Part shown: positions 3,920 through 19,976 of the stretch, piece by piece
Layout: each line of letters starts with the position of its first letter
Position numbering within the stretch: the first letter of the stretch is position 1
Source of the DNA: a virus
Lineage: Duplodnaviria > Heunggongvirae > Uroviricota > Caudoviricetes
DNA length: 24,128 nt
IMG/VR virus record: IMGVR_UViG_2529293139_000010
Direction: 5' to 3' (one strand)
The notes under the pieces: model-generated
Database searches by the model: none
What the model was told of the DNA's origin: nothing
The model's input: only the letters and a program-made list of their open reading frames with translations
Translations under genes and position numbers: made by a program

Positions 3920-5010
3920 ATGGATACACGCATGTCAGACATTCTAATTACTTATGATGAACGGAAAGATAAATTTGAGTCCTATGCCCTTACTCTTAAA
4001 TCGTTATTAACCACGTTAATTCGCAATGAAAAAATTTCAATTCACTCACTTGAATCAAGAGTTAAAACAAAAAAAGCCTTGAAGGTAAGATTAATAAAAA
4101 GGGAAAATACAAGTCTATAGATGATATTACTGATATCGTTGGTATCAGGATCATCACACATTATGCCGATGATGTTGATAAGATAGCTGCTATAGTTGAA
4201 AAGGAGTTCACCATTGACCAAGAGAACTCTATTGATAAAAGAACCTCAATTGCGCCTGATAAATTTGGTTACCTATCACTTCATTATATAGTAACTTTAA
4301 ACTCAACCAGAACAAACTTAAAAGAATATGAAGTATATAAAAACATCAAAGCCGAATTACAAATACGATCAATCCTTCAGCATGCCTGGGCGGAGATTGA
4401 ACACGACATTGGTTATAAGTCGGCCACAGGACTGCCTAATGAAATAAGAAGATACTTTTCACGCTTAGCTGGTCTTTTAGAAATGGCCGATGATGAATTT
4501 ATTAAAATCAGAAAAAAGATTTCTGAACGGCAGAAAGAGGTTGCAAAAGAACTAGAGCAAGGAACTAGTGATTCAGTTTTAGATATTTTCACTTTGGATG
4601 AATTCTTAAACACAAGTCGAGTTATGAGTGAACTTTCAGAAGAGATAAAAGAAAAAACAGGAATCACAGTACATGGCCGATACAAGGATAAAGATTTGGG
4701 ATACCTACTAAATGGTTTAAACCTAGCCAACATAACTACAATAGAACAACTCAATCAAAAACTCTCACAAATGAAAAAGCAGATAGTAGATAGAATATTC
4801 TGCTTCGGAGAACCATTTATTAATTATTACAGAGAAACCACCATGCCAAAAGAAGCTCTTTTGAGTTATTTATGTCAAATTATCGTTGCGTTTCAAAACT
4901 CACCTTCGTTAGAATCTGAATTTAATAACAAAGCAGGTTTAAATCTGAAAAACAGAGATATCTCCGATTTTTTCTCGAATATAAGAGAAAACATAAGCAC
5001 ACAACCTTAG
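3920..5010 (+). CDS. RelA/SpoT-domain (small alarmone synthetase-like, fused toxSAS / CapRel-like) protein; reading frame interrupted by a -1 shift at an A7 tract (4069-4075)
   Basis: Track ORF 3911..4120 (+) ends RVKTKKALKVRLIKRENTSL*; shifting -1 after the A7 run gives ...KTKKSLEGKINKKGKYKSIDDITDIVGIRIITHYADD...FGYLSLHYIV...ELQIRSILQHAWAEIEHDIGYK, the signature order of RelA/SpoT synthetase motifs (G-loop D-x-x-G-x-R-I, GY-S-L-H, QIR-x-x-x-QHAWAE-x-EH), continuous with track ORF 4483..5010. The catalytic frame has a TAA at 4063-4065 and no upstream start of its own. About 160 aa of C-terminal extension follow the synthetase core, with no separate antitoxin ORF. Region is visibly AT-rich. 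Confidence 0.7.
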
Positions 5011-11464: not shown

Positions 11465-13237
11465 ATGACCATCACCACAGACACCACTCTTTTACACGAC
11501 CCGCGTCGTCAGGCGGCGCTGCTGTACTGGCAGGGGTTTTCCGTGCCGCAGATTGCCGCCATGTTGCAGATGAAACGCCCGACGGTGCAGAGCTGGAAAC
11601 AGCGCGACGGCTGGGACAGCGTTGCCCCCATCAGCCGTGTCGAAATGAGTCTGGAAGCGCGACTGACCCAGCTCATCATCAAACCGCAGAAAACCGGCGG
11701 TGACTTCAAGGAAATTGACCTGCTCGGACGCCAGATTGAACGACTGGCACGGGTCAACCGCTACAGCCAGACCGGCAACGAGGCAGACCTTAATCCGAAC
11801 GTCGCTAACCGCAACAAAGGCGGGCGTCGCAAACCGAAAAAGAATTTTTTCAGTGACGAGGCCATCGAAAAGCTGGAGCAGATTTTCTTTGAGCAGTCTT
11901 TCGAATATCAGTTGCACTGGTATCGCGCCGGGCTTGAGCACCGCATCCGCGATATCCTGAAATCCCGCCAGATTGGCGCGACGTTTTATTTTTCCCGCGA
12001 GGCGCTGCTGCGCGCCCTGAAAACCGGTCATAACCAGATTTTTCTGTCGGCCAGTAAAACGCAGGCGTATGTGTTCCGTGAATACATCATCGCCTTTGCC
12101 CGGCTGGTTGACGTTGACCTGACCGGTGACCCGATTGTCCTGGGCAATAACGGCGCAAAACTGATTTTTCTCGGCACCAACTCCAACACCGCACAGAGCC
12201 ATAACGGCGACCTGTACGTCGACGAGATTTTCTGGATCCCGAATTTTCAGGTACTGCGTAAGGTGGCATCAGGTATGGCCTCACAGAGTCACCTGCGCTC
12301 GACCTATTTCTCCACCCCGTCCACGCTGGCGCACGACGCCTACCCGTTCTGGTCGGGTGAACTGTTCAACCGGGGACGCGCCAGCGCCGCCGAACGCGTG
12401 GAAATCGACGTCAGTCATAACGCCCTTGCCGGTGGGCTTCTCTGTGCGGACGGCCAGTGGCGGCAGATTGTCACCATTGAGGACGCCCTGAAAGGTGGCT
12501 GCACGTTGTTCGACATTGAGCAGCTCAAACGCGAAAACAGCGCCGACGATTTTAAAAACCTGTTCATGTGTGAATTTGTTGACGACAAGGCGTCAGTGTT
12601 CCCGTTCGAGGAGCTGCAACGCTGCATGGTCGACACGCTGGAAGAATGGGAAGACTATGCGCCGTTTGCCACCAATCCGTTCGGCTCCCGCCCGGTATGG
12701 ATTGGTTACGACCCGTCACACCGTGGCGACAGCGCCGGATGCGTGGTGCTGGCACCGCCGGTGGTGGCCGGTGGCAAATTCAGAATACTTGAGCGCCATC
12801 AGTGGAAAGGCATGGACTTTGCCACCCAGGCGGAATCCATCCGCAAACTCACCGAAAAATACAACGTCGAATACATCGGTATTGATGCCACCGGCCTCGG
12901 TGTCGGCGTGTTCCAGCTCGTGCGCTCGTTCTATCCCGCCGCGCGCGACATCCGCTACACGCCGGAAATGAAAACCGCAATGGTGCTCAAGGCAAAAGAC
13001 GTTATCCGCCGTGGCTGTCTGGAATATGACGTCAGCGCCACCGACATCACCAGCTCGTTTATGGCTATCCGCAAGACCATGACCAGCAGCGGACGCAGCG
13101 CCACCTATGAGGCCAGCCGCAGCGAGGAAGCCAGCCACGCCGACCTCGCCTGGGCGACCATGCACGCCCTGTTAAATGAGCCACTCACCGCCGGTATCAG
13201 CACCCCGCTGACATCCACCATTCTGGAGTTTTACTGA
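11465..13237 (+). CDS. P: Terminase large (ATPase) subunit (P2 gpP-like)
   Basis: Track ORF 11435..13237 (+); start placed at the ATG at 11465 (MTITTDTTLLHD...), giving 590 aa as I recall for P2 P; stop overlaps the Q start (TGATG). Confidence 0.9.
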   Translation: MTITTDTTLLHDPRRQAALLYWQGFSVPQIAAMLQMKRPTVQSWKQRDGWDSVAPISRVEMSLEARLTQLIIKPQKTGGDFKEIDLLGRQIERLARVNRYSQTGNEADLNPNVANRNKGGRRKPKKNFFSDEAIEKLEQIFFEQSFEYQLHWYRAGLEHRIRDILKSRQIGATFYFSREALLRALKTGHNQIFLSASKTQAYVFREYIIAFARLVDVDLTGDPIVLGNNGAKLIFLGTNSNTAQSHNGDLYVDEIFWIPNFQVLRKVASGMASQSHLRSTYFSTPSTLAHDAYPFWSGELFNRGRASAAERVEIDVSHNALAGGLLCADGQWRQIVTIEDALKGGCTLFDIEQLKRENSADDFKNLFMCEFVDDKASVFPFEELQRCMVDTLEEWEDYAPFATNPFGSRPVWIGYDPSHRGDSAGCVVLAPPVVAGGKFRILERHQWKGMDFATQAESIRKLTEKYNVEYIGIDATGLGVGVFQLVRSFYPAARDIRYTPEMKTAMVLKAKDVIRRGCLEYDVSATDITSSFMAIRKTMTSSGRSATYEASRSEEASHADLAWATMHALLNEPLTAGISTPLTSTILEFY

Positions 13238-14271
13238 TGAGCAAGAAAAAAGGGAAAACATCGCGACCTGCGGCAAAAACAATGACCGCCAGCGCCCCGA
13301 AAATGGAGGCATTCACCTTTGGTGAGCCGGTGCCGGTACTCGACCGCCGTGACATTCTGGATTACGTCGAGTGCATCAGTAACGGCAGATGGTATGAGCC
13401 ACCGGTCAGCTTTACCGGTCTGGCAAAAAGCCTGCGTGCTGCCGTGCATCACAGCTCACCGATTTACGTCAAACGTAATATTCTGGCCTCGACATTTATC
13501 CCGCATCCGTGGCTTTCCCAGCAGGATTTCAGCCGCTTTGTGCTGGATTTTCTGGTGTTCGGTAATGCGTTTCTGGAAAAGCGATACAGCACCACCGGTA
13601 AGGTCATCAGACTGGAAACCTCACCGGCAAAATATACCCGCCGTGGTGTGGAGGAGGATGTTTACTGGTGGGTGCCGTCCTTCAACGAGCCGACACCTTT
13701 CACGCCCGGCTCCGTGTTTCATCTGCTGGAGCCGGATATTAATCAGGAGCTGTACGGCCTGCCGGAATATCTCAGCGCCCTTAACTCTGCCTGGCTGAAT
13801 GAGTCGGCCACGCTGTTCCGCCGCAAGTATTACGAAAACGGCGCACATGCCGGATACATCATGTACGTCACTGATGCCGTGCAGGATCGCAACGATATCG
13901 AAATGCTCCGCGAAAACATGGTGAAGTCGAAAGGCCGCAACAACTTTAAAAATCTGTTTCTCTATGCCCCACAGGGGAAAGCCGACGGCATTAAAATTAT
14001 CCCGCTCAGTGAAGTCGCAACGAAGGACGATTTTTTTAATATCAAAAAAGCCAGCGCCGCTGACCTGCTGGACGCGCACCGCATCCCCTTTCAGTTGATG
14101 GGCGGCAAGCCGGAGAACGTCGGGTCGCTGGGTGATATTGAGAAAGTGGCAAAGGTCTTTGTCCGCAATGAGCTTATCCCGCTACAGGACAGGATCCGCG
14201 AGATAAACGGCTGGCTCGGTCAGGAGGTCATCCGCTTTAAAAACTACTCACTAGATACTTGCGATACCTAA
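13237..14271 (+). CDS. Q: Portal protein (P2 gpQ-like)
   Basis: ORF track 13237..14271 (+), 344 aa (length I recall for P2 Q); coupled to P. Confidence 0.9.
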   Translation: MSKKKGKTSRPAAKTMTASAPKMEAFTFGEPVPVLDRRDILDYVECISNGRWYEPPVSFTGLAKSLRAAVHHSSPIYVKRNILASTFIPHPWLSQQDFSRFVLDFLVFGNAFLEKRYSTTGKVIRLETSPAKYTRRGVEEDVYWWVPSFNEPTPFTPGSVFHLLEPDINQELYGLPEYLSALNSAWLNESATLFRRKYYENGAHAGYIMYVTDAVQDRNDIEMLRENMVKSKGRNNFKNLFLYAPQGKADGIKIIPLSEVATKDDFFNIKKASAADLLDAHRIPFQLMGGKPENVGSLGDIEKVAKVFVRNELIPLQDRIREINGWLGQEVIRFKNYSLDTCDT

Positions 14272-14362: not shown

Positions 14363-15454
14363 TCATCCCATTTCAGCCAACAACCGTCCTATATTTGAGC
14401 GCAAGATTTCCTTTTTACTCTCATCAAAAACTCCTTGAATAGTGGATAACAAAACTTCAACCAGTTTATCTCGCCTACTATCCTCAGCAAAAATTTTTAT
14501 TATATTTGAAAATTCAGATTTAAATTCACGATGAATGAAAAGAAGCACATAACTAATATTATTATAGTGTTCAATATCAATTTCTGAATTCTCAATAGAT
14601 TCCTCATTGACCTTTCTTTTTAAAAGCGATGCAAGCCTAATAACATCTCCTTGCCTTGCTTGATTATCTCCAATGATAATAGCCAAAGTATCAATCAAAC
14701 TACTGGAACTTTCTTTAAAGAAATATTCTTCTGATATAGTTGCTAAAACACCATCCTTTAACGATTCCGATGATATTTTTAAACCCACCAAGGAAAGACG
14801 TTCAATTGCTCTTTGAGGGGTATAAACCAACCATTCAGCATGTCTCCTTTCATTTCTTACTATGCTTCTCAATAGATATTGAGATCTATCAAGTGTTATT
14901 AGCATGGGAGTACTGAAGTAACCATTGGAATCAAGATGTAGGGTTTCATCACTCAAAGTTGCAGCACATATAACATCATTTTCTATGGCTCGAGCGGGAC
15001 GTGAAGAATTCAAATCCCTTTTAAGTTTTTGCTTTATTTTAAATACAAAGTCTTGTGACACCGAGTCTTTATTATCAATTACAACAATATTTGCTGACGC
15101 TAGTAAATTATGAATGCATTGCGCAAATGTGTCATGCTTATACCCCGCATAAATATCATCTTTATCCAACCCTAGAAAAGCATAAGTAAAATCGTAAAAA
15201 TCTGTACGTTTAGGCTGTTTGTTTTTCCACCGCATATAAACATTAAAGTATACATTTTTCGACTCACCAAGTTGACTAATTAAATCTTCAGTTACAAACT
15301 GACTTAATTTTTCAGCTTCAGAGTAGTGCCTTGCAGTTTCTTCAAAATGTTCATTAGAAACTCTCAGATGTTTATTTTTGAGGGGATTTATGCACTCTCT
15401 CAGTAAATTTATATTTTTAATCGACTTATCAAAAAGCTCAAAATCTCCAAACAT
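14363..15454 (-). CDS. Cargo gene 2 of a two-gene AT-rich operon; hypothetical protein (about 363 aa), no recognisable motifs
   Basis: Track ORF 14363..15466 (-) uses a TTG; the first ATG is the rev-comp of 15452-15454, 8 nt after the stop of the upstream gene. Very AT-rich, Lys/Asn/Ile/Glu-rich. No Shine-Dalgarno seen, suggesting translational coupling. Confidence 0.7.
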   Translation of the reverse strand: MFGDFELFDKSIKNINLLRECINPLKNKHLRVSNEHFEETARHYSEAEKLSQFVTEDLISQLGESKNVYFNVYMRWKNKQPKRTDFYDFTYAFLGLDKDDIYAGYKHDTFAQCIHNLLASANIVVIDNKDSVSQDFVFKIKQKLKRDLNSSRPARAIENDVICAATLSDETLHLDSNGYFSTPMLITLDRSQYLLRSIVRNERRHAEWLVYTPQRAIERLSLVGLKISSESLKDGVLATISEEYFFKESSSSLIDTLAIIIGDNQARQGDVIRLASLLKRKVNEESIENSEIDIEHYNNISYVLLFIHREFKSEFSNIIKIFAEDSRRDKLVEVLLSTIQGVFDESKKEILRSNIGRLLAEMG

Positions 15455-15462
15455 AAGAGTTA

Positions 15463-16623
15463 TCAAATATGGAATAAGAACAGGCGCATCAAAGTAGATA
15501 TAAAAATTTTATTTTCAATATATTTCTCTAATTTCCGATCACTTAACAGATTCACACATAATTTAGCAGAGCAATGCTCGGATAAATAGTCATTTTGACC
15601 AGCCAACTCCATTAGCTTTTTTGCTAAAGCATCCGAAGACTCATCATCCAAATCATATTCCTGCCGTATCAACACCTTTAAATTATGTACTATAGTTTTG
15701 AATATCTGTAATTTTGGAGGCTCAAATTTACTTTCTGTTAATTGGACATTTATTGATTCTTCATAAGCCTTTATTATTAAATCAACAACTTGAACAGCCA
15801 GATTCTTACTTGTATTTCTGGGCAACTCATTATTTATTACTGATAACAACTCTTCTTTTCTGACAATTTCACGGAGATTTATATTCTCAAGCTTTTTAAT
15901 TTCCTCTGGTGACAGGCTATATATACCATCATTCAATCTAATTTTATTTTGATGAATTAGGTTTTGCAGTCTACCCTGTAAACTACGTTTTGTAAGACTA
16001 ACACCTTTTAGATTCTCTAGAATATCATCAGCAGACTTCCCGCCATCATATAAATTAGACATAATACTAGCTTTTATTATTTCATTTTTTAAATTAGCAC
16101 TATCTTTGCTTAACAATAAATATTCATAAAATGCTCTTTGTTGCAAGTTAATTGCATCTTCAGTATTAGAACTTATCTTATGTATATCTTTTATTAAGTA
16201 ATTCAATAACCCTGGGTATTTATCTGTAATATCTTGAGAGATCCGTTTGGCATCATAAAACTCCAATCTAATCAAATCTTCCTTAAGAGCATTTGTTCTT
16301 ATCTTATCCAATAAATGCTCAGATATTGAATGACTCCAAAAAAAATATAATACAGGCGGGTAATAATGATCATCAACCAATTTCGCCACTTTTTTAATAT
16401 CTTGAGCAATCTTACTTTCAATATTTTTCTCTTGAATAGATATTTGTACAGCTTGCTTTAACTCTCTATTCCCCTTTTTTATTACCAAATCCTTTCCATT
16501 ATCCCAAGGACCACCGATCAGATATGTTTCACCACCAAATAACTCATTTGCATATAGTTTTATAAGGTTTTCGAAATCAGATTCAACCGAGATAGAGCTT
16601 AATAACTTAGAGTTATTATTCAT
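15463..16623 (-). CDS. Cargo gene 1 of the two-gene AT-rich operon; hypothetical protein (about 386 aa) with an N-terminal Mrr/NERD-like (PD-(D/E)xK-type) nuclease motif
   Basis: Track ORF 15463..16629 (-); start placed at the ATG (rev-comp of 16621-16623) preceded by AAGGA at good spacing. N-terminus FENLIKLYANELFGGETYLIGGPWDNGKDLVIKK...AVQISIQEK resembles the Mrr catalytic pattern (D-x-G-x-D ... Q-x-K) by eye. Rest is helical-looking and K/E/N-rich. Confidence 0.7.
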   Translation of the reverse strand: MNNNSKLLSSISVESDFENLIKLYANELFGGETYLIGGPWDNGKDLVIKKGNRELKQAVQISIQEKNIESKIAQDIKKVAKLVDDHYYPPVLYFFWSHSISEHLLDKIRTNALKEDLIRLEFYDAKRISQDITDKYPGLLNYLIKDIHKISSNTEDAINLQQRAFYEYLLLSKDSANLKNEIIKASIMSNLYDGGKSADDILENLKGVSLTKRSLQGRLQNLIHQNKIRLNDGIYSLSPEEIKKLENINLREIVRKEELLSVINNELPRNTSKNLAVQVVDLIIKAYEESINVQLTESKFEPPKLQIFKTIVHNLKVLIRQEYDLDDESSDALAKKLMELAGQNDYLSEHCSAKLCVNLLSDRKLEKYIENKIFISTLMRLFLFHI

Positions 16624-16783
16624 AACCAATCCTTTTAATGTCTTTACTCTTATATTTTAAGATAATTTTCAACTTATCTGCATTACATGAGACAATAGCA
16701 TAGGACTGTAGGATTTGCTCTGCCCTTCAATCATTTTGTGTCTTAGCTTATGTCACAAATATTTCAAGAACATTTTGCGCGCA

Positions 16784-16802
16784 GTGCTTTCCCCGCCTCG
16801 CC
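16784..16802. other. cos site: 19-nt cohesive-end sequence identical to that of phage P2 (reverse complement of GGCGAGGCGGGGAAAGCAC)
   Basis: Plus strand reads GTGCTTTCCCCGCCTCGCC at 16784-16802, the exact reverse complement of the P2 cohesive end as I recall it; lies between portal Q and replication gene A as expected for a P2-type prophage. Confidence 0.75.
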
Positions 16803-17086
16803 CGCCCGCTTCACGGGGCGGTTTTAATGCAGTTGCATAGATACTATGGATCCGCACCAGTCCTGACCGCACGCAGCCTGAACGGACATCCCCAACGCAT
16901 GCAAAAACATTCACTTGTTGCATGCATAGCTTTTTAAGTACGCCATACCGCAACTGTACATTTTTAAGCAATTGGCAACTTTAAAAAATTTACATTGCTT
17001 TCAAGACCTTATCATCCGTAGTCTCTGTTTTTTACTTTGAGCTACATCAATAAAATCTCAAACATGTTTAATGCAAAGCCCTTGTT

Positions 17087-17136
17087 ACACAACATAGAAT
17101 GTATGTCTAGAAACAACGACATACTATATGTTGTGT
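17087..17136. repeat. 50-bp imperfect palindrome (ACACAACATA-gaat-GTATGTC-N10-GACATAC-tata-TGTTGTGT) followed by a T5 run
   Basis: Read directly: 17087-17096 is the reverse complement of 17127-17136 (TATGTTGTGT), and 17101-17107 of 17118-17124. Could fold as a long hairpin (terminator or structured RNA) or serve as an operator. Confidence 0.5.
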
Positions 17137-17202
17137 TTTTCCGGCTCTCTGTTCGGTGATATGCCAAATCACTTTGCGTTTAAACAGAGCATTATTTCAG
17201 GG

Positions 17203-17217
17203 CAAGACTTCGCTCAA
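17203..17217 (+). repeat. 15-bp direct repeat copy 1 (CAAGACTTCGCTCAA)
   Basis: Exact 15-mer also present at 17467-17481; the two copies bracket the small ORF and its terminator. Confidence 0.6.
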
Positions 17218-17280
17218 AAGTCATTCCACCTAAGAAGCGCATATACCGGTGGAAGTTGCCCTCTACTTACAGGAGGCAAT

Positions 17281-17394
17281 ATGAAGAAATGCTATTACTG
17301 CATTCTCGTTCTGGCCCTCTTTGGCTATCCAAACGGTAGTCCGAGTGGTTTGTCAGTAAACGTCAGTAATATCAATGTCAGCATTATGCTTTAA
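17281..17394 (+). CDS. Candidate small hydrophobic protein (37 aa, MKKCYYCILVLALFGYPNGSPSGLSVNVSNINVSIML)
   Basis: AGGAGG at 17271-17276, 4 nt before the ATG at 17281; hydrophobic N-terminal half; stop at 17392-17394, followed 12 nt later by a canonical intrinsic terminator. The track lists it only as the 3' part of a longer alternative-start ORF 17128..17394. Confidence 0.4.
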   Translation: MKKCYYCILVLALFGYPNGSPSGLSVNVSNINVSIML

Positions 17395-17406
17395 TATGCT
17401 TCAAAC

Positions 17407-17436
17407 AAAAAAACCACCTGCCAGGGTGGTTTTTTT
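17407..17436. terminator. Bidirectional rho-independent terminator (A7 - GC-rich stem-loop - T7)
   Basis: AAAAAAA CCACCTG-C-CAGGGTGG TTTTTTT: stem CCACC/GGTGG with a short loop, flanked by an A-run upstream and a T-run downstream, so it can terminate transcripts from both strands (small ORF on plus; A operon on minus). Confidence 0.7.
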
Positions 17437-17466
17437 GCGCCCATCATCAATACGATGAAAGACTGA

Positions 17467-17481
17467 CAAGACTTCGCTCAA
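17467..17481 (+). repeat. 15-bp direct repeat copy 2 (CAAGACTTCGCTCAA)
   Basis: Exact match to 17203-17217. Confidence 0.6.
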
Positions 17482-17696
17482 GACGAATTATGCGTCGACA
17501 TAAGGTTACCCGCAATGATTTTATTAGACTAAATGGATGGCCTTTTATGACCCGGATCAAACGGCTGTCCTTACCGACATGCTAGTCACTCAATAGCATT
17601 TAGCCTTCTAATTCAGCATGCTATTGACCTTCTGCTGCCCCATAACTGCTCCGCATAAGCCATTCAATGCCATATCAAATCACGTTGTGTTTTTAC

Positions 17697-19976
17697 TCAA
17701 ATGGGTAACGAGAACCCCGGCCACTCATCAGCAACCGGATACGTGAATTTTTTCCCATCATAATTTACGGTTGCCCCACGCGCCAGCGCCTCAAGCTCCC
17801 ATCGCTGCGGCCTGATACCGTTCTGAGCAAGGTCAACGCGGATACGGGTAATTTGCATTCGTTCCGACCGGGTCAGTCTGGCCGATGGCGCTATTTCATG
17901 CGGTTTTAACGGGCTTCCGCTTCTTTGCTGACGGTTTGGTGTTCTCAGGTCGTGTTTTAATGCGCCCCTGAGCGCCCTCACGACCTCCTGGTCATTCCAT
18001 TCGATAACACCGTCATCAACCAGATTAAGCACTGCGGCGGCGTGCTCAGAAGGTGTGGGAGCCGGTAACGAAGCATCACTACCGGTGAGCTTTCCACAGT
18101 TATTGACAGGACTCCGAGGCGCGGCGATGCCGCTTTTTAAAGTCAAAGGCTCAACGACCGGCACTTTCGGCACAATGCGCCAGTCCGTCGTTCTGGTGAT
18201 ATGAATATGACGCGCGCCGAGATGCGGCGCGTAAATGCCGACCACTCTCTCGACTTCTTCCTCGTATTCGTTAACGTCATCCGACGGGCTACGGGCGACC
18301 CTGACAGTCTGACAATCGCGCGGGACATTTGCCCCGCCCTGCGCGCTGATATACAGCGCAAAATCGCCACTGTCTGCGGCGGCGCGTGCAGCCTCCACGC
18401 GTTCGTCAAATTCATCAGCAATGCTGACGCCGCGAGGCAATTTACGTAGCTCACGGTAAGCTCCCATTGTCGGCAGGCCAACCGTTTTAAATTGCGGGAT
18501 GCGCCACGTTGACGCCCATGCGGTAACAGCCGCCGCAGTATCTTTCAGCGGTCTGCCGGTATCGTTATCGAGCTGACCATCCAGTGCATAGCCGTCGATA
18601 TTTTTTGAAATGTATTTCGCGATATATCCCGCAGCACCGCCCCGGTTAAGGTGTTTTGCCTGAAAACGGTTTCGCGCGGCTCCTCTTTCGTCGCCATCCT
18701 CTTTGAGCGCATAGCGATGCATGATTTCGATAATCTGGTTACGCTGGCGTGGATTACAAAAAAGCATCATATGCCAGTGCGGCGTTCCGTCGTGGTGTGG
18801 CTCGACGACTCGCAAACCGTAGACCTGTAAATCATTATCCTTGAATGCCGTGCGCATCAGGCTCCAGATACGGCAGAGATAACGCTGCGCATCCTTTGGA
18901 TTAAATGCCTCATCATTCCAGCCGTGATTAAGCTGGACGGTTTTATTTTCGCCTTTTCCAACCTGACGTGTCGGGTGATACTTTGACGGCGCGGTAAGCG
19001 TGATAAACATCCCCACATCACCCTCTGAGGCGGCGTAACGCTCAATACCGGCAATGGTGTTCATCAGCTCCATCCGGCGAATTTCAGGATTAGAAATACT
19101 GCCCATCACCTTACTGATAAGGTCGATGCGCTCGCCGGTTTCCCTGTTTTCAAGGTCACACGATTTAAGAAATTCCAGATTTGCCTGGCGGCGCGCACGC
19201 ACATCCCGAATGGCATGTTTACTGGCATAAGGAGAACGGTCTTTATTGACCTCCCCGACAGCTATCAGTAACGCCTCATGCCAGCGCATACGCTGGCCTT
19301 TAAGCTGATGAGTCCACCACTCATCGTTAAACAGACGGGCAATGGCAGAATATGCCTGCCTCGTGGTCATCTGTCCTTTACGGTATTTTTTCCAGTAGAG
19401 AGGGGAAATATTGAAAGCACGTGCAGCGCCAGCAACATGACCATAGAGGTGAGCCTGCGCCTCATCCGTAAACAGCGATTCTTTCTCGCCATGCGCATCC
19501 ACCCAGGCATCGCAGAGTTCCTCATACATCATGAAAAGCTGCGATGAGATACGGGCAGCAAACTTTTTCAGCTCCTTGTCATTCATTCCCGGCAGGCGCG
19601 CATACTGGTCGCGCTCTGCCAGAAACAGCAACGACGCATCGGTGTTCATTTCATGGCGCTGATTCACGCGCTCAATGCGCGGCCATAAACGACGCTGAAA
19701 AGTGGATGTGAGGAAATAAAACCCGTGCACCGGGCTTTTATTGCGCCTGATGTAGTCATAGCGTGAAGTAAACAGCGAGCGCAAAAAGTAAGGCAGGCGG
19801 TTAATCGTGGATAAAACACCTTGCACCTGACGCATCTCGTCACGTGTAAGGGGTCTTTCGCGCCCGACGGCCTCGCGTGGCGCGTTCCATGCATAAGCAC
19901 CGGTAAACGTCTCACCGGTGCCTGCGGCAAATGCTGACGGAGGGACAAAACGCCCGGAGGCTTTAACGGCCATATG
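17697..19976 (-). CDS. A: Replication initiation endonuclease (P2 gpA-like, HUH rolling-circle initiator)
   Basis: Track ORF 17697..20015 (-), 772 aa; contains the H-x-H motif HWHMMLF and Tyr-rich region typical of rolling-circle initiators. Start placed at the internal Met MAVKASGRFVPPSAF... (about 759 aa); the upstream start at 20015 is the alternative. Confidence 0.85.
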   Translation of the reverse strand, partial: HMAVKASGRFVPPSAFAAGTGETFTGAYAWNAPREAVGRERPLTRDEMRQVQGVLSTINRLPYFLRSLFTSRYDYIRRNKSPVHGFYFLTSTFQRRLWPRIERVNQRHEMNTDASLLFLAERDQYARLPGMNDKELKKFAARISSQLFMMYEELCDAWVDAHGEKESLFTDEAQAHLYGHVAGAARAFNISPLYWKKYRKGQMTTRQAYSAIARLFNDEWWTHQLKGQRMRWHEALLIAVGEVNKDRSPYASKHAIRDVRARRQANLEFLKSCDLENRETGERIDLISKVMGSISNPEIRRMELMNTIAGIERYAASEGDVGMFITLTAPSKYHPTRQVGKGENKTVQLNHGWNDEAFNPKDAQRYLCRIWSLMRTAFKDNDLQVYGLRVVEPHHDGTPHWHMMLFCNPRQRNQIIEIMHRYALKEDGDERGAARNRFQAKHLNRGGAAGYIAKYISKNIDGYALDGQLDNDTGRPLKDTAAAVTAWASTWRIPQFKTVGLPTMGAYRELRKLPRGVSIADEFDERVEAARAAADSGDFALYISAQGGANVPRDCQTVRVARSPSDDVNEYEEEVERVVGIYAPHLGARHIHITRTTDWRIVPKVPVVEPLTLKSGIAAPRSPVNNCGKLTGSDASLPAPTPSEHAAAVLNLVDDGVIEWNDQEVVRALRGALKHDLRTPNRQQRSGSPLKPHEIAPSARLTRSERMQITRIRVDLAQNGIRPQRWELEALARGATVNYDGKKFTYPVADEWPGFSLPI

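Follow-up and report, generated by a model that had tools for sequence, protein, structure and literature searches.

A putative antisense-controlled small-protein module, resembling toxin–antitoxin systems of type I, within the variable region of a P2-like prophage

Among the described type I toxin–antitoxin systems, par of plasmid pAD1 (Fst/RNA II) is defined by convergent promoters, a shared bidirectional terminator, direct repeats that give 5′-to-5′ complementarity, and a stem occluding the Shine–Dalgarno (SD) sequence (PMC7472228), and in the T1TAdb survey of 2021 the families with a 3′-located antisense RNA were Gram-positive only (PMC8594479). In Salmonella and other enterobacteria, TimP/TimR (ryfA/ryfB) consists of a peptide of 38 residues, which is less conserved at its C-terminus than at its hydrophobic, signal-like N-terminus, and of TimR, a small RNA (sRNA) with an intrinsic terminator, the 5′ end of which pairs over 18 nt with the 5′ untranslated region (5′UTR) of the peptide mRNA (PMC7667032). 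OrzO pairs inside the 174-nt zorO 5′UTR (PMC3919570, PMC5397157). Here we describe a module of about 520 bp in a viral DNA stretch of 24,128 nt (IMG/VR record IMGVR_UViG_2529293139_000010; hereafter the window), a P2-like prophage in an orientation reversed relative to the P2 map. The module lies between the cohesive-end site (cos) and the replication gene A, that is, in the variable region which in P2-like phages is a hotspot of protein-based defence systems (PMC9122126). Judged from sequence comparison, it is highly probable that the region is an antisense-controlled small-protein module, and reasonably probable, with less assurance, that it is a type I toxin–antitoxin-like system.

The initial annotation of this region, made from the letters of the window alone, had proposed a type I toxin–antitoxin or small-protein/sRNA locus. 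Comparison among 11 lineages (the set used throughout unless a smaller number is stated, with the window itself as the A type) supports a coding constraint on the open reading frame (ORF), a conserved promoter, fold and terminator of the sRNA, and a co-varying duplex, all of which bear that proposal out, and it supports in addition the mobility of the module. The features of the initial annotation are real, present at the coordinates given there, and functionally linked; they are listed below together with further, partly predicted elements.

17029–17551, no strand assigned: whole autonomous module, about 520 bp, delimited by the extent of homology with non-P2 copies
17072–17100, plus strand: best candidate promoter of the peptide mRNA, TGCAAA (17072–17077), 17 nt, TAGAAT (17095–17100), predicted start at about 17107
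17087–17136, plus strand: imperfect palindrome, overlapping the candidate −10 and the mRNA 5′ end
17147–17189, plus strand: 5′UTR hairpin CTCTGTT...AACAGAG with inner stem GGTGAT/ATCAC
17201–17217, plus strand: direct-repeat copy 1, putative sRNA target site in the 5′UTR, its 3′ end 63 nt upstream of the ATG
17224–17254, plus strand: 5′UTR hairpin TTCCACC...GGTGGAA with the conserved loop AGAAGCGCA
17256–17280, plus strand: anti-SD segment UUGCCCUCU and SD AGGAGG (17271–17276), forming a local hairpin
17281–17394, plus strand: 37-codon ORF encoding MKKCYYCILVLALFGYPNGSPSGLSVNVSNINVSIML, with frame-specific constraint and conserved in 11 lineages
17407–17436, no strand assigned: bidirectional intrinsic terminator, common to the mRNA (plus) and the sRNA (minus)
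17407–17480, minus strand: predicted antisense sRNA of about 74 nt, composed of a 5′ antisense segment, hairpin 2 (17439–17463) and the terminator
17465–17481, minus strand: direct-repeat copy 2, the 5′ antisense segment of the sRNA
17487–17515, minus strand: predicted sRNA promoter, −35 TTGCGG (17515–17510), 17-nt spacer, −10 CATAAT (17492–17487)

The 37-codon ORF stands where the initial annotation had placed it, together with its ribosome-binding site AGGAGG at 17271–17276, 4 nt ahead of the ATG, and the hydrophobic N-terminus mentioned there corresponds to an apolar stretch at residues 4–16. Across the lineages the ORF has 37 codons, except in L170 (38) and in the Salmonella lineage (39); it contains no indels although the flanks carry several, its stop codon is kept as TAA or TAG, and the SD is retained everywhere as AGGAGG, GGAGG or AAGGAG. 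The Nei–Gojobori ratio of nonsynonymous to synonymous substitution rates (dN/dS), determined for six pairs, is 0.23–0.35 in the frame of the ORF versus 0.67–3.25 in the other two frames, a pattern which indicates that the ORF is a real gene under purifying selection. In the B type, the second allelic type found in Escherichia coli, a stop codon interrupts the in-frame upstream extension to 88 codons. Peptide identity amounts to 62–81% among five compared lineages, and individual peptides read as follows.

A type: MKKCYYCILVLALFGYPNGSPSGLSVNVSNINVSIML
C lineage: MNKWHYCILVLALFGYPTGSQSGWSLTVSHISISFIM
D lineage: MNRLYYCILVLALFGYPMDSQSGWSLNVSHINISISL
K1 lineage: MNRLCLCILVLTLFGYPVGSQSGWSVNVSHINVNISL
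S lineage: MDRRDCMCLFILTLISHLITGQESWMVYLNHISLTVQFY

The basic N-terminus of the peptide is followed by an apolar segment of 13 residues (4–16), a polar linker YPxGSxSG, and a tail in which polar and hydrophobic residues alternate. Across the lineages the apolar stretch spans 11–13 residues, the grand average of hydropathy is 0.5–0.95, and the net charge of −1 to +2 is located N-terminally; the C-terminal half is uncharged apart from histidine in the lineages of 37 residues and has a single Glu in the Salmonella lineage, and Trp is found in some lineages only. No PADLOC protein model of known anti-phage defence was matched by the peptides, and the single PHROG match (E = 0.3), which falls on the hydrophobic N-terminus, is meaningless. 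A natural deletion derivative was encountered in a prophage remnant (L005, a Logan contig of ERR1623625, the same contig being present in 8 samples), where a deletion has fused codon 16 of the ORF (window position 17328) to sequence upstream of the genes for repressor and integrase. This remnant has neither the sRNA gene nor gene A, and the ORF, truncated after codon 16, leaves a chimeric ORF of 71 residues.

Downstream of the ORF lies the terminator, composed of A7 (17407–17413), CCACC, TGCCAG, GGTGG and T7 (17430–17436), the 13-nt arms of which are 100% complementary, in full agreement with the canonical bidirectional terminator of the initial annotation. Its sequence is nearly invariant in all lineages, and the sole change in the stem (lineage D) gives a U·G pair on the minus strand and C·A on the plus strand. 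The promoter predicted on its far side for the minus strand retains the hexamers TTGCG(G/A/T) and CATAAT in 11/11 lineages around a divergent spacer of 17–18 nt and is preceded by an A/T-rich tract (about 17520–17535); a consensus scan missed it because its −35 matches the consensus at only 3/6 positions. The start predicted about 7 nt past the −10 (17480 or 17479) falls on repeat copy 2, and the resulting sRNA would be 72–74 nt long with an identical three-part fold in every lineage (−29.5 kcal/mol and z = −3.8 in this window). Its middle hairpin (hairpin 2) is formed by at least six unrelated sequences at the same position among the lineages, and in 8/9 lineages it is more stable on the minus strand (here −9.7 versus −4.1 kcal/mol on the plus strand) because of G·U pairs. 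These observations support the prediction of an antisense RNA gene that is convergent with the peptide gene and has its own sigma-70-type promoter. At the gathering threshold, Rfam gave nothing over the module in the whole window and eight related loci; the matches to RNAI, Phe leader, rseX and OrzO-P that were listed in E-value mode are sub-threshold and driven by the terminator hairpin, reflecting a generic sRNA shape and not homology.

The 15-mer CAAGACTTCGCTCAA occurs exactly twice in the window, at 17203–17217 and 17467–17481, both on the plus strand, which confirms the exact direct repeats reported in the initial annotation; 0.06 matches would be expected by chance even with 2 mismatches allowed, and 0/100 shuffles gave two matches. 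As the two predicted RNAs converge, the direct repeat in the DNA makes the 5′ end of the sRNA complementary to the mRNA 5′UTR. The distance from the end of the repeat core to the ATG is 64–65 nt in every lineage. When copy 1 was joined to the reverse complement of copy 2 for the 11 lineages, a duplex of 14–18 bp was predicted in all of them, with 90.9% of the cells paired in an 18-pair window versus 27–42% when the partner was slid by 1–3 columns, and with 154/154 cells paired at the 14 core pairs. Double-sided changes occur at four pairs, a value reached by 3/500 shuffles: three of these positions are in the Salmonella-plasmid lineage, which has GGTAAGGCTTTGCTCA in both copies versus GGCAAGACTTCGCTCA in most others, and one is in L169, with TGACAAG in both copies. 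The one-sided changes (A, B, D, K3 and L170) are all transitions leading to G·U or U·G in the predicted orientation, and with transcripts of the opposite orientation the interior changes of D and K3 would give A·C mismatches instead. The terminator hairpins of the mRNA and the sRNA are also mutually complementary.

For the peptide mRNA, the best promoter candidate, TGCAAA-N17-TA(G/A)AAT, has the same spacing and a differing spacer sequence in all 11 lineages, and in the Salmonella lineage the similarity to the others stops directly after the candidate −10. Because its −35 is weak, we only infer that the site at 17072–17100 drives the mRNA. An alternative, TTTACA-15-TATCAT (16989–17015), was rejected: its spacer is too short, its −10 is lost in the Klebsiella and Salmonella lineages, and the region is missing in C and D. 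Inspection of the promoter region by eye only revealed no convincing LexA box of the form CTGT-N8-ACAG. In E. coli CUPS TF 6/1_01 (L129), the IS4-family element ISVsa5 is inserted at about 17072–17082, a position that coincides exactly with the candidate −35; about 11 bp are duplicated at the insertion, and the surrounding prophage is degraded.

The palindrome that the initial annotation had noted upstream, followed by a T-run, is present, with arms (17087–17096 and 17127–17136) that are 100% complementary, an inner stem GTATGTC/GACATAC and TTTTT after it. It does not behave as a conserved terminator: the B type keeps neither the inner stem nor the T-run (GTGTTGTTCA), and an unrelated hairpin occupies this position in other lineages, that of the Salmonella lineage being CCAGCCCCTA/TAGGGGCTGG. 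With the candidate promoter at 17072–17100, the palindrome would straddle the −10 and the mRNA 5′ end; as its inner stem and T-run are unconserved, it is not a terminator. Folding of 17022–17440 gives z = −4.8. In the hairpin at 17147–17189, the inner stem GGTGAT/ATCAC is replaced by GGTGGTT/AACCAC in Citrobacter, a compensatory change (RNAalifold pair 57/68); in that at 17224–17254, likewise with compensatory changes, CCACC/GGTGG (A type) is exchanged for CCGCC/GGCGG in the B type, and the C, D and K lineages carry UCCGUCAC/GUGUCGGA. The SD has a mean predicted unpaired probability of 0.02–0.49 and is thus mostly paired. RNAalifold also returned co-varying alternative helices, GGUGG with CUACU (17263–17267) and CUCUG with CAGGAG of the SD, and this modelling suggests that the 5′UTR may take several conformers. 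The loop motif AGAAGCGCA (17233–17241) is nearly invariant in nine aligned lineages, K1 and K3 differing by one base. Its complement UGCGUU (17175–17180), located in the loop of the preceding hairpin, is just as conserved, and the two may form a long-range or alternative pairing within the 5′UTR. At the left border of the module, GTTTTTTACTTTGA (17027–17040) is 86% complementary to TCAAACAAAAAAAC (17401–17414), just ahead of the terminator stem; this match, largely of a T-run with an A-run, may be trivial and is relevant only if the mRNA starts upstream of 17027.

The distribution of the module argues for its autonomy. In blastn searches, 72–78% identity was found over 17029–17552 with plasmid and metagenome lineages that have no gene A neighbour, and in the Klebsiella and Salmonella lineages the homology extends leftward to about 16986. 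At this level of identity the core 17029–17551 is present in a Citrobacter freundii contig without gene A (L133) and in a metagenomic contig of IncFII type (L154). Among PLSDB plasmids, 419 belonging to several sub-lineages carry it, 392 of them from Klebsiella and 349 predicted to be conjugative. These carriers are mostly large conjugative Klebsiella plasmids (matches include the IncHI1B/IncFIB and IncFII(K)/IncFIB types), among them a plasmid of a liver-abscess isolate and plasmids from clinical carbapenem-resistant strains. Salmonella plasmids have a far more diverged copy with only short DNA matches to the window, and two lineages found through peptide searches adjoin filamentous-phage genes (Zot, secretin). 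These two diverged copies (L169 3306–4528, L170 1301–4125; L171) lie beside secretin, Zot and DUF2523 genes, and the module therefore also travels with inovirus-like elements. The neighbours of the module differ in each setting, be it prophage, plasmid, IncFII-type contig or filamentous-phage region.

A search for the ORF and the repeats in other P2-like prophages, which the initial annotation had suggested as a check, located the segment 17040–17700 in 150/5426 complete E. coli genomes (2.8%), in every case on the chromosome and by way of P2-like prophages. The E. coli copies fall into two allelic types, A (this window) and B, about 86% identical, plus A/B mosaics, with recombinants inside the module represented by L127 and L128. 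RefSeq has no annotation across the segment in the E. coli genomes, save for the overlapping end of gene A, and annotation over the module is lacking altogether, two E. coli transconjugant plasmids annotated by RefSeq included. With most sequenced P2-like phages the window has no more than the cos region (16777–16937) in common, and the segment is therefore cargo of the variable region and not universal packaging DNA. Conserved non-coding packaging DNA of all P2-like phages, the finding that the initial annotation had named as contradicting its proposal, is thus not what was found, as most of these phages are without the segment and most copies reside on Klebsiella plasmids. As to the searches themselves, an initial 14-mer scan of viral contigs proved too unspecific (mostly chance matches) and was replaced by two-repeat and degenerate peptide-coding patterns; four of the five genome-contig pattern matches and L156 were discarded as chance or tandem-repeat matches. 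In the profile search of 1.84 billion representatives, two alignment rows had a spurious N-terminal read-through extension, and only profile positions 36–72 are relevant.

We infer the transcription, transcript ends, repression, toxicity and biological role of the module in the following way. The self-contained unit of about 520 bp, carried as cargo in the variable region beside gene A of the P2-like prophage, would give rise to a plus-strand mRNA of about 330 nt, with a structured 5′UTR of about 175 nt, an SD inside a hairpin and the 37-codon ORF, and to a minus-strand sRNA of about 74 nt; transcription of the two would be convergent and end at a single bidirectional terminator. At its 5′ end the sRNA would pair with the mRNA 5′UTR at the site 63 nt upstream of the ATG, and this pairing may keep the mRNA untranslated or destabilise it, possible routes being a blocked ribosome standby site, a locked SD-occluded fold, or cleavage by RNase III. 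Once the supply of sRNA ended, through loss of the element or shut-off of transcription by an infecting phage, the peptide would be made and might damage the inner membrane, resulting in maintenance of the element or in abortive infection. It is the toxicity of the peptide that defines a locus as a toxin–antitoxin system, and in the classic addiction systems the antitoxin RNA is less stable than the toxin mRNA. On a more tentative level, it is possible, though we would not presume it, that the module represents a previously undescribed enterobacterial type I toxin–antitoxin family of par-type design with a short, signal-anchor-like membrane toxin, whose role would be that of an addiction module on some 400 sequenced plasmids of Klebsiella and of an abortive-infection or prophage-maintenance element in the P2 hotspot. 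In the literature on the peptide motif, the repeat sequence, the P2 hotspot, type I toxin–antitoxin systems and Klebsiella plasmid sRNAs, we found no description of the module.

Several points weigh against this interpretation. The apolar segment, 13 residues here, is short for a canonical transmembrane helix, the AlphaFold2 model of the peptide is poor (predicted local distance difference test score of 55) with its only helix at residues 3–14, and the peptide matches no known toxin family in Pfam, NCBIfam, PHROGs or PADLOC; the ORF itself is missed by the Prokaryotic Genome Annotation Pipeline and most gene callers. The −35 of the candidate mRNA promoter is weak (3/6), and the site was not reported by the consensus scan. 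The covariation of the duplex amounts to four double changes in two lineages, and the shuffle control ignores relatedness. Finally, the target site lies far from the ribosome-binding site, and when it was blocked in the partition-function model, SD accessibility did not change consistently. With or without the target site blocked, the SD is predicted to be mostly paired, and a structural switch, in which binding of the sRNA would free the anti-SD segment, is not claimed in view of that result.

The peptide may instead be a small membrane or secreted protein under antisense-sRNA control that is not toxic, such as an exclusion, signalling or envelope-modulating peptide, in which case the module would not be a toxin–antitoxin system. 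This explanation, which we regard as unlikely but well worth keeping in mind, fits the coding ORF, the sRNA and the duplex equally well, and the short apolar stretch, the polar C-terminal tail with alternating hydrophobics and the lack of likeness to known toxins speak for it, as does the behaviour of TimP, the closest peptide analogue, which at its endogenous level permits growth without its sRNA (PMC7667032). However, the module spreads autonomously, its neighbours changing between plasmids, prophages and filamentous-phage regions, as is usual for addiction modules, the control appears to be tight and multi-layered (SD occlusion, a dedicated sRNA and a shared terminator), and the L005 remnant, which is without the sRNA gene, also has a truncated ORF.

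We give very little credence to two further explanations. If the region were non-coding DNA downstream of gene A, whose terminator ends the P2 early operon and whose ORF, repeat and hairpins have no function of their own, the lack of RefSeq annotation would be accounted for, and the terminator, 260 nt past the stop codon of gene A, would bring the early transcript to an end; yet the same 520 bp are found on hundreds of plasmids and in other contexts without a nearby gene A, most P2-like phages are without the segment, the ORF is under frame-specific purifying selection, and the promoter hexamers and both repeat copies are conserved amid diverging sequence, so that distribution and dN/dS largely refute this explanation already. 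The repeats could also act as DNA, either marking an insertion or recombination event, as had been suggested in the initial annotation (in the form of a target-site duplication or an att-like core), or serving as a pair of sites for a DNA-binding protein. Their exactness, their direct orientation and their position on either side of the ORF and the terminator speak for this, as do the A/B mosaic recombinants (L127, L128) that occur within the module. We reject the footprint reading: 11 lineages of unrelated context have retained the two copies and altered them in concert, they are internal to a conserved unit with borders at 17029 and about 17551, the differences between the copies are transitions that keep G·U pairs only in the mRNA × sRNA orientation (D, K3), and copy 2 lies exactly at the start site of a conserved promoter. 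A repeat of 13–18 bp is moreover probably too short for efficient RecA-dependent gene conversion, and a DNA-level explanation is disfavoured by all these points.

Provided that the antisense-controlled toxin–antitoxin reading is correct, the module would add a widespread and wholly unannotated family to the type I toxin–antitoxin repertoire of the Enterobacteriaceae, and, as such modules affect plasmid persistence, the family would be relevant to the curing or destabilising of Klebsiella plasmids. The par-type regulatory design would then not be confined to Gram-positive bacteria, and the P2 hotspot would carry also RNA-based cargo that is invisible to gene-centred surveys; seemingly gene-empty hotspots may not be empty. 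The module furthermore offers a clean case for asking by what means translation is controlled when an sRNA binds about 63 nt upstream of the start codon.

The genes and sites surrounding the module in the window are as follows.

13237–14271, plus strand: portal gene Q
14363–16629, minus strand: two AT-rich cargo ORFs
16784–16802: cohesive-end sequence GTGCTTTCCCCGCCTCGCC, 19 nt, matching the cosR end of P2
17697–20015, minus strand: replication gene A

Gene A is annotated by RefSeq as 'replication endonuclease' in genomes that are 100% identical to window positions 17040–17700. The longest ORF in the interval from cos to gene A has 88 codons, and the earlier statement that no large gene is present there holds. 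The neighbouring cargo varies among prophages with an identical or near-identical segment: near cos, L004 carries an AAA-ATPase gene and a hypothetical gene, L127 has no cargo around cos, and the B type (L003/L128) carries an ImmA/IrrE-family gene and two hypothetical genes, so that the position of the module beside gene A is constant while the other cargo turns over. In the window itself, the cargo ORFs at 14363–16629 overlap each other, encode 367 and 388 residues, and lie between portal gene Q and cos in a segment of about 30% G+C versus about 53% in the flanks. Neither had a convincing match in Pfam, NCBIfam or PADLOC, a far sub-threshold NCBIfam sigma-factor match (E = 0.016) being the only one listed; by position, the pair is a candidate for an unknown two-gene defence system of the P2 hotspot. 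The gene for an ImmA/IrrE-family metallopeptidase of 161 residues, named after the E. coli RefSeq annotation (L003 2033–2518, L133 6231–6716, L165 4357–4842), lies about 150–470 bp upstream of the module and divergent from it in copies of the B type and in those of Citrobacter and Enterobacter. Neither the A type nor any of the Klebsiella plasmids examined has this gene, and Pfam gave no match for its Citrobacter copy. Just before the gene A stop codon, positions 17663–17692 form a degenerate direct repeat of 30 nt (73% identity) with 17152–17181 of the 5′UTR hairpin region, which could be the remnant of a second copy of the module or a chance match.

On plasmids, type I systems of the DinQ/AgrB type were observed near the module, and type I modules appear to be clustered there. 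On the Klebsiella plasmid L164, an Rfam match to AgrB (4325–4412) and a DinQ-like ORF (about 3938–4078) are situated about 600–1000 bp upstream of the module, and on the Salmonella plasmid L168 a dqlB gene (769–864) is situated about 2.2 kb upstream. The DinQ-like toxin of L168 and the AgrB-like RNA of L164 are units separate from the module. Like the ISVsa5 insertion in L129 and the L005 remnant, this neighbourhood is an anecdotal observation that accords with the proposed reading.

The design of the module is worth comparing with those of the known type I systems, par foremost. Both have convergent promoters, here as predicted, and a shared bidirectional intrinsic terminator (PMC7472228), oppositely transcribed direct repeats that make the 5′ regions of the two RNAs complementary outside the terminator overlap, an intramolecular SD-occluding stem, and carriage by plasmids and phages (PMC7472228; PMC8594479). 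However, par has two repeats (DRa and DRb) that sequester the translation initiation site, whereas the module has a single one, 63 nt upstream of the ATG, which overlaps neither the SD nor the start codon, unlike what is characteristic of par. The Fst/Ldr signature comprises a transmembrane helix, a conserved Trp and a C-terminal tail of high charge, in contrast to the 13-residue apolar segment and uncharged tail of the module peptide; no sequence similarity to Fst/Ldr was detected, and neither Pfam nor NCBIfam gave a match. The module is not a member of the par family, its peptide being without the Fst/Ldr signature and its single repeat not covering the initiation region.

In peptide type, TimP is nearest, with regard to its size, its signal-like N-terminus and the pairing of the sRNA 5′ end in the 5′UTR. 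TimR, however, is encoded divergently upstream of timP with no shared terminator or direct repeat, whereas the sRNA gene of the module is downstream and convergent, and TimP/TimR has been described at the chromosomal ryfA locus, whereas the module resides on mobile elements. The ryfA family of Rfam (RF00126) is not among the module matches even at E ≤ 10, and no NCBIfam or Pfam family matches the module peptide.

TisB/IstR-1, ZorO/OrzO, ShoB/OhsC and DinQ/AgrB resemble the predicted RNAs of the module in the long structured 5′UTR, in a short duplex well upstream of the ribosome-binding site, and in a primary transcript that is translationally poor; IstR-1 blocks a ribosome standby site. In this group, unlike in the module, the sRNA gene is located 5′ of the toxin gene, divergent and non-overlapping (PMC8594479). 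The complementarity stems from inverted and not from direct repeats, and the toxins are unrelated to the module peptide. Hok/Sok has in common with the module that it is mobile on plasmids and prophages, with highly structured mRNAs and a small peptide, and Hok has an N-terminal membrane segment followed by a C-terminal tail, the topology also predicted for the module peptide. Sok acts via the mok leader ORF, and Hok, at about 50 residues, contains a transmembrane helix of full length. Neither by sequence nor in Rfam was any similarity of Hok/Sok to the module found, and Sok, unlike the module sRNA, lies entirely within the hok mRNA, on its 5′ side (PMC8594479). With no record of it found in Rfam, Pfam, NCBIfam, PHROG, PADLOC or the literature, the locus, as far as its sequence can tell, combines a par-like regulatory logic with an unrelated peptide.

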